A stretch of DNA of 64,000 bases from Rhodopila sp. (GCA_965276975.1 CBDIBR010000009.1:53938-117937), one strand, 5' to 3'; positions 1,945 to 63,788 are shown, counted from the stretch's first letter. The notes: generated from the letters alone by a model not told the origin. Translations and numbers: made by a program.

Positions 1945-3084
1945 TCATTGCGCTGGCCAGTCGAGCTCCGGCAACCGCAGCAGAGGCACCTGGCGCATCG
2001 ATAATGTGCGATATTGAAGTGTCAGCGGTACATCTACGGTGGTCGCCCGCTCATTGTCATCGGCTCCGGCGATCAGCGAAAGCACGGCTTTGGCGACGGT
2101 CGCCGCCGATCTCGACAGCACGCCATCCTCTGCCAGCTTGTCCAGGGCTTTATCATAACCGACGAATCGCCCGTTGCCGCTTCCCATTGGCTGAAGCTGA
2201 TCATCCAAGGCCAGGGTCGCCGACCCGGTCAGGCCCAGCGGCCCCCAACCCATCGTCAGGCGGGCGATGTCCAACGCGCCACCGCGGTCGCGCCACCGCC
2301 GCGCCCACCCTGTGATACCGCTCTGGGTCGGAAAAGGTCCCCGCACCTTGCCATCCACGGCCAGTGAAGAAATATTGCGACCAAGCGGCCATCGGATCGT
2401 GCCAGGAAGAGCAATCGCCTCGGAACTGACGCGGAAGACCGCGGCGGCCGGGGCTTGATCAGCGGCAGAAGCCTCCGCCTGGGCATTCAGCAGGCCGATC
2501 GACACGTGCCACGCTCCGGTCGCGGCCTCGATCCGCAAGCCCCTGGCCTGCAGCACCACCGGCCGCGGTCCGGCCTGGTCAGAGCGGGATGGCGTAAGGT
2601 TGACGCGATCATGTTCTGGTCCCGGTTGCCTGACAGGGCGATTGACCTCCGAGGCTGGCGCACCCTTGGACGATCGCGCGCCAAGCGGCACCGACATCGC
2701 GGTCTGATCGCCGGTCACGATGATGTCGGGTATCCCGCCGGCGCGCACATGGGTTGGTCCGCTGATGGACAAGCGCAGATGGGTCGGTTCGAACAGGGAG
2801 ACGGAAAGCATCACATCGGCAGCGGCCACATCCAGGGTGCCTGGAATTGTCGGCCCGGCGTGACGTAACGTCAGGTCAGGGACGGTCAGCGTGGCCGCCC
2901 GGGGCCATCCGCCGATCGACAGCGGACCCGAACCGACGTCCCAACCCTCGGCGATCCGCGCCGTCATCCAGCTTCGGTAACCAGCTTTCAGCTGGTCGGC
3001 CGCGACCTTCCAGTACGCGACCTGCGCGGCGGCGACAAGAACAACCAGTATGGCAACGATGGACCAGGCGACGCGGCGGGTCAT
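1945..3084 (-). CDS. DUF2125 domain protein with an in-frame repeat insertion
   Basis: N-terminal TM/signal, GGWP motif and WGPLGLTGSATLALDDQLQPMG. Lies in the usual position downstream of ftsEX-plsC. Confidence 0.8.
   Translation of the reverse strand: MTRRVAWSIVAILVVLVAAAQVAYWKVAADQLKAGYRSWMTARIAEGWDVGSGPLSIGGWPRAATLTVPDLTLRHAGPTIPGTLDVAAADVMLSVSLFEPTHLRLSISGPTHVRAGGIPDIIVTGDQTAMSVPLGARSSKGAPASEVNRPVRQPGPEHDRVNLTPSRSDQAGPRPVVLQARGLRIEAATGAWHVSIGLLNAQAEASAADQAPAAAVFRVSSEAIALPGTIRWPLGRNISSLAVDGKVRGPFPTQSGITGWARRWRDRGGALDIARLTMGWGPLGLTGSATLALDDQLQPMGSGNGRFVGYDKALDKLAEDGVLSRSAATVAKAVLSLIAGADDNERATTVDVPLTLQYRTLSMRQVPLLRLPELDWPAQ
2581..2680. repeat. About 100-bp palindromic dispersed repeat (family A), copy inside the DUF2125 CDS
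   Basis: 70/100 ungapped identity to 17221-17320; shares GGTTGACGCGATCA, CCGGTTGC, GGGCGATTG and GACGATCGCGC. Confidence 0.85.
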
Positions 3085-16724: not shown

Positions 16725-17096
16725 ATGAGTGATCTATTCGCGCCCGATGGTGGCTGGCGGGTTCGTATTCTGGACCTGTCGGCGGACACCAAGGACAATG
16801 TCACCGAGGAAGTCCCCGGCTTCGACACGCTGATGCACGCCAACGCCTTCGCGCGCCGGTACGTGCGCGATTCGGTCGAGCGATGCCGGGTCCCGGGCAT
16901 GTCGTCCAAGGATGTGCTTGAAGCATGGTTCGCCTTTGGTGAAGACGCGGTGGTCGCCGATGCGGCCGAGGGTGGCTGGAAAAGTGCCACCGAACTGGGT
17001 GACTTCGTTGATGGTCTCGCAAGCCGGGAAGAGCGTGATTGGCGTTCGCTTGACCCGCGGCGAGAGGACCTCGACCTCGATGAGGACGATGCGTGA
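16725..17096 (+). CDS. Hypothetical acidic protein
   Basis: Coding-like 123-aa ORF whose stop overlaps the GTG start of the next gene. Confidence 0.7.
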   Translation: MSDLFAPDGGWRVRILDLSADTKDNVTEEVPGFDTLMHANAFARRYVRDSVERCRVPGMSSKDVLEAWFAFGEDAVVADAAEGGWKSATELGDFVDGLASREERDWRSLDPRREDLDLDEDDA

Positions 17097-18526
17097 TTCG
17101 CGTGCGGTTCGCGCCGGTGCTGGCGGGCAGCGTGTTCGTCAGCAGCGCTCGGATTGCCCTGGCCAACGACTTGTTTGCTCGGCGAAACAATGGCGAGATG
17201 CTGCTTCGACTGGATGACTTAGGCCGCGATCGCCTCGGGTTGACGCGATCACACCCTAAATCCGGTTGCTTGAGCGGGCGATTGGCGTCCGGGGTTGATC
17301 CAACGTCAGACGATCGCGCTGTAGACACCAGGCGAGCCGACCCGGTTCCTATCGAGCAGATCGTGCAGGATCTGCGCTGGTTGGGTATCGAGTGGCAAGC
17401 GTCCTTCCGCCAATCCGAGCGATTGGAGCTGTACCAAAACGCGATCGAGCGCCTGAAGCGAGACAAGCGCCTGTATCCCTGCTTTGAGTCGGAGGAGGAG
17501 CTGAAAGCCAAACAGGCGTTCCGCCGCAGGCACAACCAGCCGACGATCTATGACCGCGGTATGCTGTCGCTGACTGAAAAGCAGCGTCGGGATGCCGAAG
17601 CAGGCGGCAAATCGGCGCACTGGCGGTTCAAGTTGCCTGACCGATCGGTGGCATGGGACGATCTGGTTCTGGGACCACGAAGTGCGGCTCTGTCGGCTGT
17701 GTCCGACCCGGTTCTGGTGCGCGCTGACGGCCAACCCACGCCCCTGCTCGCCGGCGTGGTGGACGACGTCGAGTACGGCACCACCCATATCATCCGCGGC
17801 GACGACAGTGCCGGCAACACCGCTGTGCAGATCGCGTTGTTCGACGTCCTTGGCGGCGGGCAGGTTCGCTTCGGCCACCTGCCTGGCTTGCGCAGCGGCG
17901 GACCGGCGAGATCGGGCGGACGGCGCGCCGAGGACCCGGCGATACGGGGTCTACGCAAGGACGGCGTCGAGCCCGGAGCGATCGTTGCCTGCATGACGGG
18001 CCTGGCGGCTGGCAGGATGCTAGCATTGGACGACCTCGCGAAGCAGTTTGAGATCGCCAGCATCGCGGCGTGCCGCTTCGACATCACCCGCCTACTCGCC
18101 GTTAACCGGCGGCTGCTGAGCGAGCTTGATTTTCCGGCGGTGGCCGACCGCCTGCCGGAAGGAGCCACCGAGCGCTTCTGGCAGGCGATCAGGGGCCATG
18201 TTGAGCTGTTAAAGGATGCGCGTGATTGGTGGGATGTCGTGGCTGGGACGATCAGACATCCTGTGCTCGAAGGCCAGCGGGACCTGTTGCTGCGTGCCGA
18301 GGCACTGCTGCCACCTGAACCTTGGGATGATGCCGTATGGACCGGCTGGATCCGCGCTGTCGAGACTTCCACCGGACGAAGCGGCGACGCCGTTGTCGCG
18401 CCGCTTCGCCTCGCGCTGACCGGCGAGAGCAGCGGCCCGGATCTGGCGCGATTGCTGCCGCTCATCGGCCGCGAGCGGGCTTCGAAGCGGCTCATCGTTG
18501 CCGCCGCTGATACCAATCCGTGTTGA
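17093..18526 (+). CDS. Glutamate--tRNA ligase paralogue with degenerate HIGH/KMSKS motifs and an in-frame repeat insertion
   Basis: RVRFAP, DLRWLGIEW, LYPCFESEEEL, SDPVLVRADG, VVDD, HIIRG and PLRLALTG identify the GluRS fold. The HIGH position reads VFVSS and the KMSKS position reads RSGGR. Confidence 0.85.
   Translation: MIRVRFAPVLAGSVFVSSARIALANDLFARRNNGEMLLRLDDLGRDRLGLTRSHPKSGCLSGRLASGVDPTSDDRAVDTRRADPVPIEQIVQDLRWLGIEWQASFRQSERLELYQNAIERLKRDKRLYPCFESEEELKAKQAFRRRHNQPTIYDRGMLSLTEKQRRDAEAGGKSAHWRFKLPDRSVAWDDLVLGPRSAALSAVSDPVLVRADGQPTPLLAGVVDDVEYGTTHIIRGDDSAGNTAVQIALFDVLGGGQVRFGHLPGLRSGGPARSGGRRAEDPAIRGLRKDGVEPGAIVACMTGLAAGRMLALDDLAKQFEIASIAACRFDITRLLAVNRRLLSELDFPAVADRLPEGATERFWQAIRGHVELLKDARDWWDVVAGTIRHPVLEGQRDLLLRAEALLPPEPWDDAVWTGWIRAVETSTGRSGDAVVAPLRLALTGESSGPDLARLLPLIGRERASKRLIVAAADTNPC
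17221..17324. repeat. Family A palindromic repeat, copy inside the GluRS-like CDS
   Basis: Terminal inverted repeat CGCGATCG (17225-17232) / CGATCGCG (17311-17318); homologous to 2581-2680 and 47875-47959. Confidence 0.85.
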
Positions 18527-31895: not shown

Positions 31896-31998
31896 GCATC
31901 AGAGAAACGCGATCTGTTGCTGTTTGTCTGAAGTAGCCGATTTGCGCGGCGAAACGCGGCCGCTTCGCGTCTCGCGGTTCTCTACGATCGGGTACTAG
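31896..31998. repeat. Structured dispersed repeat (family B), copy 1
   Basis: Shares GCTGTT.GTCTGAAGT.GCCGA...CGGCGAAACGCGGCCGCTTCGCGTCTC...CTCT.CGATCGGG.ACT.G with 42370-42471. Confidence 0.85.
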
Positions 31999-42369: not shown

Positions 42370-42471
42370 CTAGTATTGGGCATCAGACGCCGCTGTTCGT
42401 CTGAAGTCGCCGACGCACACGGCGAAACGCGGCCGCTTCGCGTCTCCCGCTGCTCTGCGATCGGGGACTGG
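42370..42471. repeat. Structured dispersed repeat (family B), copy 2
   Basis: Homologous to 31896-31998, including the identical 27-mer CGGCGAAACGCGGCCGCTTCGCGTCTC. Confidence 0.85.
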
Positions 42472-47099: not shown

Positions 47100-47138
47100 T
47101 CGATGCCATGTTGCGACCGCGCAGTCAGGAGAGAAAGC

Positions 47139-47876
47139 ATGATCAGGCTGTCGATCGCCGTGCCGGCCGGATTGGCGCTTGCTATCGGGGGGCTTTCTAT
47201 TGGGGGCCTTGCCCTCGGGCCGCTTACCCTGGGGGTGGCGCAGGCGGAGAATGCGGGTCATGCCTTGCCGCCGCCGGCCGCGGATGCGACGCCGAGCGGT
47301 GGCGGTTCCGAGACGGCGGTTTTCTCCGGTGGCTGCTTTTGGGGCGTGCAGGGCGTGTTCCAGCATGTGAGGGGGGTCACGCGGGCGGTTTCGGGCTACG
47401 CGGGCGGTCACGTCGCCAACCCGGACTACCAGCAGGTCAGTTCAGGCGACACCGGCCATGCGGAGTCGGTTCGCGTGACGTTCGATCCGGCTCAGGTCAG
47501 CTACGGCACGCTGCTGCGGATCTTCTTCTCGGTGGCGCTTGATCCCACGCAGAAGGACCGGCAGGGTCCCGATTGGGGATCGCAATACCGTTCGGAATTG
47601 TTCGTGAACGGGCCGGAGCAGGAGCGGATCGCCAGGGCCTATGTCGCGCAGCTCGACGCAGCCCATGCGTTCGGCCGTCCGATCGTCACGCGGATCGATC
47701 CCGCCGGGCCGTTCTACCCGGCCGAGGCGTATCATCAGGACTACCTCGATCGGCACCCTGACGCGCCGTACATCGCGATCAACGATCTGCCGAAGGTTCA
47801 GGCCCTGCAGACGTTGTTTCCGGGACAGTGGCAGTCAACGCCGGTCACGGTCGGCAAGCTTGCCTCCGGCGATTGA
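47139..47876 (+). CDS. msrA: Peptide-methionine (S)-S-oxide reductase with N-terminal signal peptide
   Basis: GGCFWG, GHAESV and FYPAEAYHQDY. Confidence 0.95.
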   Translation: MIRLSIAVPAGLALAIGGLSIGGLALGPLTLGVAQAENAGHALPPPAADATPSGGGSETAVFSGGCFWGVQGVFQHVRGVTRAVSGYAGGHVANPDYQQVSSGDTGHAESVRVTFDPAQVSYGTLLRIFFSVALDPTQKDRQGPDWGSQYRSELFVNGPEQERIARAYVAQLDAAHAFGRPIVTRIDPAGPFYPAEAYHQDYLDRHPDAPYIAINDLPKVQALQTLFPGQWQSTPVTVGKLASGD

Positions 47877-47962
47877 GCGCGCTCGCTTCAGGGTGAAGCG
47901 GTCACGTCCTGTTCGAGAAGGCGATCGACGTCCGAAGTTGGTCCAACCTCGGACGATCGTCA
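47875..47962. repeat. Family A palindromic repeat, intergenic copy
   Basis: 47875-47910 matches 17222-17257 at 26/36 and 47915-47959 matches 17272-17316 at 36/45. Internal hairpins are CGCTTCA-GGG-TGAAGCG and GTCCGAAGTTG-GTC-CAACCTCGGAC. Confidence 0.85.
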
Positions 47963-48003
47963 TGTGGGCGGATATCGCCGTTGGGCAGCCGACCTGGACG
48001 GGA

Positions 48004-48855
48004 TCAGTCTTCCAGAAAGGCGGTGAAGGCGGCCTGATAATCAGGGTGCCAGCGGGACAGTGCCGGGCGGTTCTCGGTGATGTCCTGGGTCGCCCATAGC
48101 ATGCGCTTGTTGTCGATCGCGCGGGTCACATCGTTGTCCGGGCATATGATGTAGAAGTCGTGCTGGTTGATCCCCTCGATCAGCTGGTCCACGACCTGAT
48201 CGGGGGTCCAGGCGCCCGGCGGCTTCTCGGTGCGGTCGCCACGGGTCATGCCGGTGAAGGTCGAGCCCGGGACCAGAAGATGGGCGGAAATCCGAGCCCC
48301 TTGCTGATTGCGCAGACTGTGGGCGAGCGCCTCGGTCACCGTCTTGACGCCGGCCTTGCTGACGTTGTAGGCGGCATCGCCGGGCGGGCAGGTGATGCCC
48401 TGTTTCGAGCCGGTGTTGACGATCGCGCATTCGCTGTTTTGCGATAACATTGACGGTGTGAAGGTCTGTACGCCGTTGATCACGCCCCAGAGGTTGACCT
48501 CCAGCACCTTGCGCCAGCGATCGATATGCTCCCACGGGCCGCCGCCGGGCGCGGTGCCGGCGTTGTTCATCAGCACCGCGACTTCGCCAAAGCGGGCGTA
48601 GACCGCATCGCGCAGGGCCTGCACTGCTTCCAGGCGGCTGACGTCGGTGGCGAGTGTCAGCACCGCGTCGGCACCGGATGGCGAGGCGGCGGCAACCGTG
48701 TCAGCGGCGCGCGCCAGTGCCTCGGGCGAGAGGTCGGCGAGGCAGACCTTCAGCCCCATCGCAGCGAAGCGCCGGGCGGCGGCCAGGCCGATGCCGCTGG
48801 CGGCGCCGGTAATGACCGCGACGCGACCGGCATGAAGAGCGGGATGGTTCGGCAT
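48004..48855 (-). CDS. SDR family oxidoreductase
   Basis: TGAASGIG, NNAG and YNVSK. Confidence 0.92.
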   Translation of the reverse strand: MPNHPALHAGRVAVITGAASGIGLAAARRFAAMGLKVCLADLSPEALARAADTVAAASPSGADAVLTLATDVSRLEAVQALRDAVYARFGEVAVLMNNAGTAPGGGPWEHIDRWRKVLEVNLWGVINGVQTFTPSMLSQNSECAIVNTGSKQGITCPPGDAAYNVSKAGVKTVTEALAHSLRNQQGARISAHLLVPGSTFTGMTRGDRTEKPPGAWTPDQVVDQLIEGINQHDFYIICPDNDVTRAIDNKRMLWATQDITENRPALSRWHPDYQAAFTAFLED

Positions 48856-49091
48856 GGGGTGGTTTCCTTCGTCGTGCCCTGCCCCGGGGTTGATGTTATT
48901 GCGCGTCGGACGCAAGGGGGCCGTCAGTCTCTGAAAATAACGCACCAATACACTGGCTTTGCGCGTCGCGCACTGTGGCCAACCACCGAAGCGGCAGCCT
49001 AGCGCGCTGACTTGAAACAGATTGCGCTCTGGCTGGTTATTTGACGCGCAAGTTTGACAGCCAGACTGTTCCCGATCGGGCTGGTGCCGCT

Positions 49092-49493
49092 CTACTCCGG
49101 TGTGAAGTTCATTGCGATACCGTTTATACAATACCGCTGGTAGGTGGGTGCCGGGCCGTCGGGGAACACATGCCCAAGATGGCTGCCGCAGGTGGCGCAG
49201 TGCACCTCGGTGCGGATCATACCATGGCTGCGATCGACAGTCGTTTCGACAGCGCCTTCAACCGGATCGTTGAAGCTGGGCCAACCTGTGCCGCTTTCAA
49301 ATTTCCCTCCGGCTTCGAACAACGGGCGATCACATCCGGCGCAGGTAAAGCGACCGGGACGCTTTTCCGCCAGCAAGGCGCAGCTGCCTGGCGCCTCGGT
49401 GCCGTGCGACCGCATCACATAATACTGTTCGGGGGTCAGAACCCGGCGCCATTCTGCATCGTCGCGGGTGATCGGATAGTCTTTGACGGTCAT
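49092..49493 (-). CDS. msrB: Peptide-methionine (R)-S-oxide reductase
   Basis: HGTE, KFESGTGWPSF, HLGHVFPDGP, RYCING and two CXXC pairs. Confidence 0.96.
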   Translation of the reverse strand: MTVKDYPITRDDAEWRRVLTPEQYYVMRSHGTEAPGSCALLAEKRPGRFTCAGCDRPLFEAGGKFESGTGWPSFNDPVEGAVETTVDRSHGMIRTEVHCATCGSHLGHVFPDGPAPTYQRYCINGIAMNFTPE

Positions 49494-49709: not shown

Positions 49710-50483
49710 ATGCGCCATCGTCATCGCGCGCTGCTCGCGCTTGCAGTGGCCGCGCTTGTCGGCTGGTTGCCGCATGCGGCAACCGCGGCTCACCTCACCG
49801 CCGCTCAGGTGCGTGCCGTCGTGGCCGGTCGCCAGGGTCATAAAGTCGATCTATCCGGCAAGGACCTGTCCGGCGACGACCTGAGCGGGCTGGACCTGAC
49901 GGGCGCGAACCTGGCGGGCGCCGATCTTTCCAACGCCAACCTGCATGGGGTGAAGCTGGTGGGCGCCGATCTGACGGGAGCCCGTCTGGTCAACGCGGAC
50001 CTGACGTTCGCCTGGTTCATCGGCGCCAATTTCAACCGAACCGATCTGCACGGGGCGACGCTGCAGACCGTGGTCACCTCCAGCGGCATGGAGAACACCA
50101 AGGAGCAGGCGGCCAGCTTTGTCGACGCCGACCTGTCGGCGACGCACACAACCGTCCATTTCAGCTTCGACGACATGCGCCGGGCCAATTTCTCGCACGC
50201 GAACATGACGGTTGTCATGGCGAACCAGTCGATGGGGTTGTTGCGAACGGAGTTCAAAAGCTGCGATCTGGACGGCGCCAACTTCGAAGGGGCCGGACTG
50301 GGCCACGTGACGTTTCGCTTCGCCAAACTGCGTCACGCGAACTTTCGCGGCGCCGACGCCCGCGACGCGGATTTCATCGGCGCGTATCTGAACGATGCCG
50401 ATTTTACCGGAGCCCGAACCGACGGCGCTGATTTCGAAAGTGCGACGCTGACCGGGGTGACCGGTCTCAGCATCCCGCGGTGA
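49710..50483 (+). CDS. Exported pentapeptide-repeat protein
   Basis: Signal peptide followed by A(D/N)LXX repeats (ANLAG ADLSN ANLHG, ANFRG ADARD ADFIG). Confidence 0.9.
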   Translation: MRHRHRALLALAVAALVGWLPHAATAAHLTAAQVRAVVAGRQGHKVDLSGKDLSGDDLSGLDLTGANLAGADLSNANLHGVKLVGADLTGARLVNADLTFAWFIGANFNRTDLHGATLQTVVTSSGMENTKEQAASFVDADLSATHTTVHFSFDDMRRANFSHANMTVVMANQSMGLLRTEFKSCDLDGANFEGAGLGHVTFRFAKLRHANFRGADARDADFIGAYLNDADFTGARTDGADFESATLTGVTGLSIPR

Positions 50484-55683: not shown

Positions 55684-56520
55684 ATGATCGTCACACGCTT
55701 CGCACCCAGTCCGACGGGCGCCCTGCACCTGGGCCATGCTTTCTCGGCGTATGTCGCCTGGCGCCAGGCGCGGCGCGCGGGCGGGCGGTTTCTGCTGCGG
55801 CTGGAGGATATCGATCCTGGCCGTTGTCGCCCCGAGTATGCCGCGGCGGTGCAGACCGACCTGGCTTGGCTGGGTCTGGACTGGGACGGACCCGTGCGGG
55901 TGCAGTCTGAGCATCTGCCCACGTACCAGTCGGTACTCGACGGGCTGGCGGAACGCGGCCTGGTGTATCCGTGCTTCTGTACCCGCGCCGACATCGCGCG
56001 GGAGATCGCAGCCTCGGCCGCGGCGCCGCATGGGCCGGACGGGGCGCCGCTATATCCGGGCACCTGCCGCCGTCTGTCGCGGGCGGAGCGGGCTGACCGG
56101 ATCGGCGGTGGCGAGCGGTTCGCGCTGCGGCTGGATATGGCGGCCGCGGTTCAACCGGGCTTGACCTATGACGAGGTCGATGAAGGTCGCATTGCCTGCC
56201 AACCCGAGCGGTTTGGCGACGCCGTGTTGGCCCGCAAGGACGCACCGGCGAGCTATCATCTGTGCGTCACGCACGACGATGCGTCGCAAGGCGTGACGCT
56301 GATCACCCGCGGGGCCGACCTCAGGCCGGCGACCGATTTGCACCGGCTGCTGCAAGCGCTGATGGGGTGGCCGACGCCCGCTTACGCGCACCACAGGCTG
56401 CTGACCGATGCCGCCGGCCGGCGGCTGGCAAAGCGGGACCGGGCAACGAACCTGGCGTCGCTCCGCGCCGAGGGGGTCTCGGCGCGGGCGATCATCCAGC
56501 GGTTCGATCAATCCCAGTAG
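55684..56520 (+). CDS. gluQ: tRNA glutamyl-Q(34) synthetase GluQRS
   Basis: RFAPSPTGALHLGH, YPCFCTR, ITRGADL and RLAKR; lacks the anticodon-binding domain. Confidence 0.93.
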   Translation: MIVTRFAPSPTGALHLGHAFSAYVAWRQARRAGGRFLLRLEDIDPGRCRPEYAAAVQTDLAWLGLDWDGPVRVQSEHLPTYQSVLDGLAERGLVYPCFCTRADIAREIAASAAAPHGPDGAPLYPGTCRRLSRAERADRIGGGERFALRLDMAAAVQPGLTYDEVDEGRIACQPERFGDAVLARKDAPASYHLCVTHDDASQGVTLITRGADLRPATDLHRLLQALMGWPTPAYAHHRLLTDAAGRRLAKRDRATNLASLRAEGVSARAIIQRFDQSQ

Positions 56521-63620: not shown

Positions 63621-63690
63621 CCGCAGCCATCGGATGCTTTGTCAGGATAGGCCGGGTGGATTGGCGGCAGCCCGGCTGCCTTGCCGTGGC

Positions 63691-63788
63691 GCCGTCCACT
63701 GGGCGCCGTCCACTGGGCGCCGTTCGCCGTCCACTGGGCGCCGCCCATTGGATGCCGTTCGCTGGGCGGCCTTCCGCTGGGCGCCTGA
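63691..63788. repeat. Degenerate 14-bp tandem array between convergent MFS genes
   Basis: GCCGTCCACTGGGC at 63691, 63705 and 63726, plus decayed copies. Confidence 0.85.

Follow-up and report, generated by a model that had tools for sequence, protein, structure and literature searches.

We find that a 100-nt palindromic repeat, read in frame inside a GluRS-like gene of Rhodopila sp., is a copy of a real, genus-level family of IS630-type MITEs that has made at least four in-frame insertions of about 34 codons. The MITE family is previously undescribed, and the kind of element is already known. More specifically, we hold with a probability of roughly 0.85 that the element is a non-autonomous MITE of the IS630 / Tc1-mariner type, specific to Rhodopila. 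Outside the obligate intracellular Rickettsia, the family is a clean natural case of peptides being inserted by a transposon: four conserved proteins, enzymes among them, each gained about 34 residues and remained under purifying selection in two species, and a two-armed repeat architecture is tied to a specific transposase family. Rhodopila is an understudied soil and peat genus, mostly known from MAGs; the copies will confuse gene callers and orthologue alignments, and they are useful as strain-typing markers within the genus.

The window, meaning the whole 64,000-nt stretch of DNA analysed, corresponds to C9:53938-117937 of the genome searched (G000; 5.30 Mb in 10 contigs, 64% GC, 98.6% complete). 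It holds exactly three copies of the 100-nt repeat, listed here with their hosts and flanks.

17222..17321, plus strand: MITE copy of 100 nt in the GluRS-like gene (nhmmer E=5.7e-28; covariance model 89.6 bits at C9:71156-71262)
17220..17221, no strand: putative left TA target duplication, within TTAG (from the sequence, the family flanks and an empty site elsewhere in the genome)
17322..17323, no strand: putative right TA target duplication, followed by G (from the sequence, the family flanks and an empty site elsewhere)
17093..18526, plus strand: host gene, a divergent GluRS-like paralogue of 477 aa (ORF; Pfam tRNA-synt_1c and Anticodon_2)
2582..2681, plus strand: MITE copy in the minus-strand DUF2125 gene (nhmmer E=5e-27; in-frame spanning ORF)
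1945..3084, minus strand: host gene DUF2125, 379 aa (ORF; Pfam PF09898, E=2.6e-35)
47875..47964, plus strand: intergenic MITE copy with a 10-nt internal deletion (nhmmer E=1.3e-22; between convergent genes)

Size and consensus of the repeat family

The original prediction matched 17221-17320 to 2581-2680 at 70 of 100 nt and named an intergenic copy at 47875-47959, and both claims are borne out. In a repeat search of the window, 2585-2679 and 17225-17319 line up over 95 nt at 72% with no gaps, and the third copy near 47875, which extends to 47964, aligns with one 10-nt gap in a MAFFT alignment of the window copies. We built a profile from these three copies and iterated nhmmer over the whole Rhodopila genome. 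The first pass gives 152 matches, among which the window copies score E=5.7e-28 (GluRS-like), 5e-27 (DUF2125) and 1.3e-22 (intergenic) and are therefore far beyond chance. The converged search returns 156 matches at E<1e-5 and 181 at E<1e-3, which resolve into about 168 non-overlapping loci in the 5.3-Mb genome; the expectation of many copies genome-wide was thus correct.

The profile consensus is 99 nt long (AGCGTGATCGCTTCAGGTTGAAGCGATCACGCTCTAATTCCCGTTGTTTGAGAGGGCGATTGACGTCCGAGGTTGGTTCAACCTCAGACGATCGCGCTC), or 100 nt once the preceding G is counted in, with a GC content of 55%, and full copies are identical to it at a median of 83% and a maximum of 93%. The repeat has no ORF of its own and, being shorter than 300 bp and dispersed in many copies, fits the generic description of a bacterial MITE. 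Alongside the full copies there is a short form of ~62 nt, made of the linker and hairpin 3, with about 49 copies that at times stand in tandem after a full copy and have no obvious left terminal inverted repeat (TIR). Searching Rfam, we find no family at the gathering threshold anywhere in the window, and a consensus-like copy at a permissive E-value yields chance miRNA matches only. A blastn search of plasmids gave no useful match for the consensus or for two out-of-genus relatives, and full-text searches of the literature found no paper on Rhodopila repeats.

Other repeats also occur in the window. An unrelated second repeat of 78 nt lies at two intergenic sites (31919-31996 and 42392-42469) at 85% identity, and short tandem repeats at 63676-63773 and 49879-49987 consist of 14/21-nt units (CGCCGTCCACTGGG...) and 15-nt units, the latter typical of pentapeptide-repeat coding sequence.

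Anatomy of the element

The repeat is bounded by TIRs of about 22-24 nt, GAGCGTGATCGCTTCAGGTTGAA and GAGCGCGATCGTCTGAGGTTGAA, which are identical at about 19/23 positions. The original prediction was right that such repeats are present and put their length too short, the 8-nt CGCGATCG being only their core. According to the family flank profile, the left flank of full copies is typically YT(A/G)G and the right flank T(A/G)G; the flank trimers display no covariation beyond composition, with 9/63 identical pairs compared to 7.4 in shuffles. After each TIR comes an inward-facing inverted copy of itself, so that the element consists of two long hairpins and a linker: helix 1 has 18 bp and helix 3 has 12 bp, each of them 82.9% paired, and a small helix sits inside the linker.

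An RNAalifold consensus on 40 copies was poor (-2.98 kcal/mol) and was replaced by a structure drawn by hand, which we tested by pair counts. Across 40 copies, 82.6% of the cells are paired, as opposed to 29-41% when the 3' partners are slid. Two-sided pair changes are found in 51 cells versus 27.5 in shuffles, a number reached by 0 of 500 shuffles. Pair 8-34, for instance, is GC in 22 copies and CG in 10, while pair 72-90 is CG in 11 and UA in 11. Covariation supports the hairpins in the family consensus, and part of the signal reflects subfamilies. The two internal hairpins that had been described for the GluRS-like copy are clear at the level of the family but decayed in that copy itself, where the DNA fold has z = -0.33 relative to shuffles and most of the pairing is lost.

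Set in its CTAG context, each strand of the consensus can be read without a stop in exactly one frame, and the genic copies use these frames. We considered the open frames on both strands as a product of selection for survival in genes and rejected the idea as unsupported, since 24% of mononucleotide shuffles show the same.

The insertion in the GluRS-like gene

The copy in the GluRS-like gene is read in the element's plus frame as residues 44-77 (G44-V77), immediately after an invariant RLDDL. The element together with the duplicated target makes 102 nt, or 34 codons, so the in-frame insert of about 33-35 residues that had been proposed is real and exactly 34 residues long, with boundaries that were off by a few residues. 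The GluRS-like protein has 477 aa with the insert and 443 aa without it, compared to 434-467 aa in its homologues; it scores 209 bits against NCBIfam gltX_bact, below the cut-off of 290.

Comparison with relatives locates the empty site. The protein match to 30 relatives breaks into two parts that lie on adjoining DNA, residues 1-47 and 77/78-472, and the alignments with relatives have a gap of exactly 34 columns after RLDDL. We do not find the 34-residue insert in 7 further congeners, nor in any of those aligned among the best 119 homologues from 5.8 billion proteins. Taking the 102 nt out restores RLDDL-DTRR, to be compared with RLDDL-D.ER in the family. Among the sampled congeners the insert is common only to a sister genome (G043, Rhodopila MAG CBDIBO01). 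The orthologue alignment that had been suggested as a check has in this way delivered the empty site, in the 30 relatives, the 7 congeners and the best 119 homologues alike. The two outcomes named in advance as fatal to the proposal, that distant orthologues should all carry the segment or that the genome should hold no further copies and the alignments be insignificant against shuffles, are both contradicted, with 119 homologues lacking it and 168 loci present.

One could also read the 34 residues as an ancestral part of the GluRS-like protein, lost in other lineages, whose resemblance to the repeat is a coincidence. Nothing beyond the open reading frame speaks for this, and the data refute it: the segment is missing in the 119 homologues and in all sampled congeners but one, and its match to a DNA family of 168 loci, at E=5.7e-28, comes complete with that family's TA(G) flanks. 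We give the ancestral reading virtually no weight and treat the segment as an insertion.

The GluRS-like genes of G000 and its sister G043 share 94% aa and 96% nt identity, and they differ at 13/102 nt in the insert and at 43/1311 in the rest of the gene. Because of these differences, and because pN/pS between the two genomes is 0.28 for the host gene and 0.46 for the insert, we conclude that the host gene is under purifying selection and that the insert is much less constrained and evolves faster. In an AlphaFold2 model built from 39 sequences (pLDDT 83, pTM 0.79), residues 48-83 fall below 50, and the insert is predicted to form a disordered loop between the strand at 35-41 and the helix at 87-96.

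Some observations concern the host family. The GluRS-like paralogues of Rhodopila and Acidisphaera have a consensus without the canonical HIGH motif (GNLFVSGxR in its place) and without a KMSKS-like motif. The same genome has a canonical-length gltX-like gene at C10:3472488-3473429, and the window holds a 286-aa GluQRS-like ORF at 55813-56496.

Other genic copies and genome-wide placement

To count genic copies we use a frame-rank coding test; a first classifier, with fixed 240-nt open flanks and absolute score thresholds, overlooked known genic copies. By the frame-rank test, 8 copies are spanned by a supported ORF. Four are internal insertions in hosts with Pfam matches: the GluRS-like protein, DUF2125, PhnI and an FAD amine oxidase. 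In a TsaB-like protein copies form the C-terminal tail, in an OEP-family protein a copy lies at or before the N-terminus, and one of the two remaining insert-spanning ORFs has no Pfam match.

The DUF2125 copy is read in the element's complementary open frame (ARSSKGAPASEVNRPVRQPGPEHDRVNLTPSRS), and nine congeners lack the corresponding stretch of about 34 residues (about 137-170), which G043 alone has as well. For DUF2125, PhnI and the amine oxidase alike, G043 matches contiguously and the other congeners are without about 34-35 residues at the site. Together with the GluRS-like gene this makes four protein-level empty sites of 34-35 codons, and the claim of in-frame insertion into unrelated proteins holds for all four, each with orthologues that have the site empty. 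In-frame copies do exist, as had been proposed, but they are a small minority: about 4-6 of the 168 loci (~3%) are genic, 4 of them internal and about 2 terminal.

Placement across the genome differs from that of random positions. Both flanks are coding on the same strand for 10% of copies versus 43% of random positions, and 13% of copies lie between convergent genes versus 1.1% of random positions. Non-genic copies favour the 3' ends of genes, standing downstream rather than upstream. The intergenic copy of the window is a case in point, lying between ORFs at 47103-47876 (plus strand) and 48004-49131 (minus strand), with its first bases completing the TGA stop (47874-47876) of the upstream msrA-like ORF.

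This enrichment between convergent genes and downstream of genes, along with the hairpin pairing kept by compensatory changes, would also be expected if the repeat were mainly a selected structural element (a hairpin at transcript 3' ends, a terminator or an RNA stabiliser), with genic copies incidental and mobility secondary. We regard this as quite improbable. There is no Rfam match and no run of T after the hairpins in the consensus, and transposase binding alone would conserve the hairpins, since they are built of TIR sequence. A structural role is, moreover, compatible with the MITE explanation and not an alternative to it.

Insertion site and source of mobility

Returning to the MITE reading, mobility is supported by a filled and an empty site at the DNA level. 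The filled site, at C10:1380473-1380570 of G000, reads GACGGCTAG[99 nt]TAGTCG, and the empty site in G043 reads GACGGCTAGTCG. The pair is an insertion into CTAG with TA or TAG duplicated; the two are inseparable here, since G is the first base of the element and C the last. This is the only clean DNA-level empty site that we recovered. Four further apparent empty sites within G000 were discarded, two as artefacts of neighbouring repeats or tandem copies and two for implausible gap sizes.

We next ask which transposase the element's ends resemble. In a genome this rich in GC, looking for the 12-nt end motif in IS-sized pairs gave mostly noise; self-BLAST, used in its place, yields 31 IS-like repeat families. 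One is an IS630-family IS at C10:3230274-3231345, for which the self-comparison gives four matches, one of them partial, and which encodes HTH_Tnp_IS630 (E=3.7e-4, just under the Pfam cut-off) and DDE_3 (E=3.6e-29). Its ends read TA followed by GAGCACGCTAGCCTGAGGTTGAC and are identical to the MITE right end at 18/22 positions. Elsewhere in the genus the resemblance is closer: an IS end in G040 (GAGCGTGATAGCTTTAGGTTGAC) matches the GATAGC variant of the MITE left end at 22/23 positions, one end of that IS being seen at a contig edge, and an IS end in G049 (GAGCATGATCGTTTTAGGTTGAC) shows 15 matches to a MITE end, its identity being put at about 20/23. All of these IS630-family ends are flanked by YTA, and the similarity between IS and MITE ends at the TIR. 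For the transposase with matching ends that had been called for, the candidate is an IS630-family enzyme, with an end that matches at 22/23 in G040, but within the element's own genome the best IS reaches 18/22 and none has ends identical to the MITE. The insertion target of the element is CTAG/YTAR; IS630 itself inserts into TA (CTAG) and duplicates 2 bp, TA. Taken together, the TIRs, the single clean pair of filled and empty sites (CTAG, with TA(G) duplicated) and the matching IS630-family ends support the view of the original prediction that the repeat is MITE-like.

A second candidate mobiliser is an IS5-family (IS1031/IS427-like) transposase that would duplicate TAG or CTAG. An IS of 921-933 bp with 11 copies has a TIR (GGGCGTGTCGTCAAAT) that starts like the MITE end (G.GCGTG), uses the same CTAG/TTAG sites and has split one MITE at an internal CTAA (C10:145636-146557), and the G000/G043 empty site is equally compatible with a 3-bp TAG duplication. 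The local alignment of its TIR with the MITE scores only 8-9, however, whereas the IS630-family ends match at 18/22 to 22/23, and we consider this mobiliser unlikely.

The two hairpins with compensatory changes and the alternation of TAG and TGG in the flanks also bring to mind a REP/REPIN-type element, spread by a RAYT (an HUH tyrosine transposase) that acts through hairpins and a (G)TAG/(G)TGG flank; REPs with GTAG/GTGG are reportedly the subject of Nunvar 2010 and Bertels & Rainey 2011. A six-frame search of the 98.6%-complete genome finds no match to Y1_Tnp (PF01797), with controls that do match, and the MITE has long TIRs matching a DDE transposon as well as a duplicated target, whereas REPINs have neither. 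A RAYT origin is in our estimation highly improbable.

For the IS630-type MITE we propose the following mechanism. The DDE transposase of an IS630-family IS, supplied in trans, would bind the MITE ends, and the element would enter the TA of a YTAR (mostly CTAG) site with duplication of TA. A full-length insertion would never shift the reading frame, because element and duplication together make 102 nt, or 34 codons, and about half of the permitted combinations of orientation and frame would give a stop-free insertion of 34 residues, because one frame per strand is without a stop. Selection would then remove most genic insertions, leaving a few in tolerant surface loops; in the GluRS-like case, the tolerated loop would be the one between the RLDDL strand and the next helix. 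Three points of this account are inferences: the identity of the acting transposase, the duplication of TA rather than TAG, and the production and function of the insert-bearing proteins.

The copies also have mobile-looking neighbours. A 20-mer, TAAGTCCGACAGGCTGCTAG, adjoins several MITE copies and the IS630-family IS (C10:4417839, 994701, 1111209, 1865855, 3230257) and has the look of a further mobile element's end, with a terminal CTAG that is a preferred target. In G043, a small palindromic repeat (TAGAGCATTTTCGGTCTGCAC.GTCAGGCTGAAAATGCTC) directly adjoins MITE copies at L023:7520-7560 and L045:1360-1400, which suggests clusters of nested small elements. On a larger scale, C10:3393-19240 and C9:1-15864 have 15.9 kb in common at 96% identity, which might reflect a large duplication, a second replicon or an assembly that mixes strains.

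Distribution across genomes

A search with a 20-nt core pattern in one genome per prokaryotic species gives 35 stretches, 33 of them in records of Rhodopila sp.; of the other two, one comes from an Acetobacteraceae MAG and one from a Verrucomicrobiota MAG, where it sits on a short contig. A covariance model (R1) detects the element in 33/41 Rhodopila genomes, with copy numbers per genome that range from 0 to at least about 95. In other alphaproteobacterial families the same model gives weak matches, of 35-63 bits, in 7/200 sampled genomes. The family is thus lineage-specific, as had been supposed, and its relatives elsewhere are weak and distinct: the out-of-genus matches (L072, L073, L074) are repeats of 118-141 nt with shared termini CTAGAGCnnGATCG...CGATCGnGCTCTAG and a linker motif GAGAGnGCGATTCACG, and with hairpin bodies that differ from those of the Rhodopila element. 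One genome outside the genus, G079, has at least 18 copies of a related repeat.

Tentatively, the Rhodopila element might be a branch of a pan-alphaproteobacterial superfamily of two-armed repeats (~100-140 nt), possibly including CIR, Bru-RS and RIME, although we would sooner bet against this than for it. If it is true, the IS630-type ends and the CTAG/TA insertion would supply the missing mobility mechanism for CIR, Bru-RS and RIME.

Comparison with known systems

Among bacterial MITEs, the one with the firmest link to an IS630-family transposase is RUP, the repeat unit of pneumococcus, which is 107 bp long and for which mobilisation in trans by IS630-Spn1 has been proposed (PMC2229807). Like RUP, the Rhodopila element is ~100 nt long, non-coding and present in around 100 copies, with TA termini and a target duplication (PMC2229807), and in both cases the TIRs resemble those of IS630-family IS of the same organisms, here at 18/22 to 22/23. 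The Rhodopila element differs in having one open frame per strand and at least 4 in-frame genic copies, and in phylum, sequence, GC content (55% here) and its two-arm fold.

It is not unusual for intragenic MITEs to form in-frame fusions, and the Rickettsia palindromic elements (RPEs) are the extreme case (PMC10969869). The original prediction likened the repeat to RPEs and to the CIR repeats of Caulobacter; the first comparison stands and the second does not, CIR being reported not to occur inside genes (PMC2229807). RPEs too are alphaproteobacterial palindromic repeats of ~100-150 nt that lie in frame in unrelated conserved proteins, with inserts predicted to be compatible with the host fold (PMC10969869, PMC2229807). 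Nearly half of the copies of three RPE families are in ORFs, however, compared to ~3% here, and RPEs have no identified transposase or clear target duplication, both of which are indicated for the Rhodopila element. The hosts differ as well, Rhodopila (Acetobacteraceae) being free-living with a 5.3-Mb genome; the comparison with RPE is by description.

CIRs, the CcrM-associated intergenic repeats of Caulobacter, are described as alphaproteobacterial, two-armed and about 110 nt long, with TA termini and, in a hairpin loop, a conserved GANTC, the CcrM site; none is reported inside a gene, every frame has stops, and the mechanism of their mobility is given as unknown (PMC2229807). By description, the Rhodopila element shares the two inverted-repeat arms and linker, the length of ~100-110 nt and the TA termini. 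It departs from CIR in its GANTC, which is held by 25/76 full copies, mostly at positions 55-59, the base of a stem and not a loop. The related Bru-RS1/2 repeats of Brucella are palindromes of 103/106 bp associated with IS711 (PMC10800456), and, again by description, the 921-933-bp IS inside one MITE copy recalls IS711 in Bru-RS. The Correia / NEMIS elements of Neisseria (107-155 bp) have TIRs of ~24 bp and TA termini with duplication, and their 107-bp form has open frames and is fused to ORFs (PMC2229807); they differ in their unrelated host and sequence and in forming a single end-to-end stem instead of two arms, and they carry promoters and an IHF site. Judged by such descriptive likeness, the Rhodopila element would work like RUP in its mobility and like RPE in its effect on proteins, with an architecture of the CIR type.
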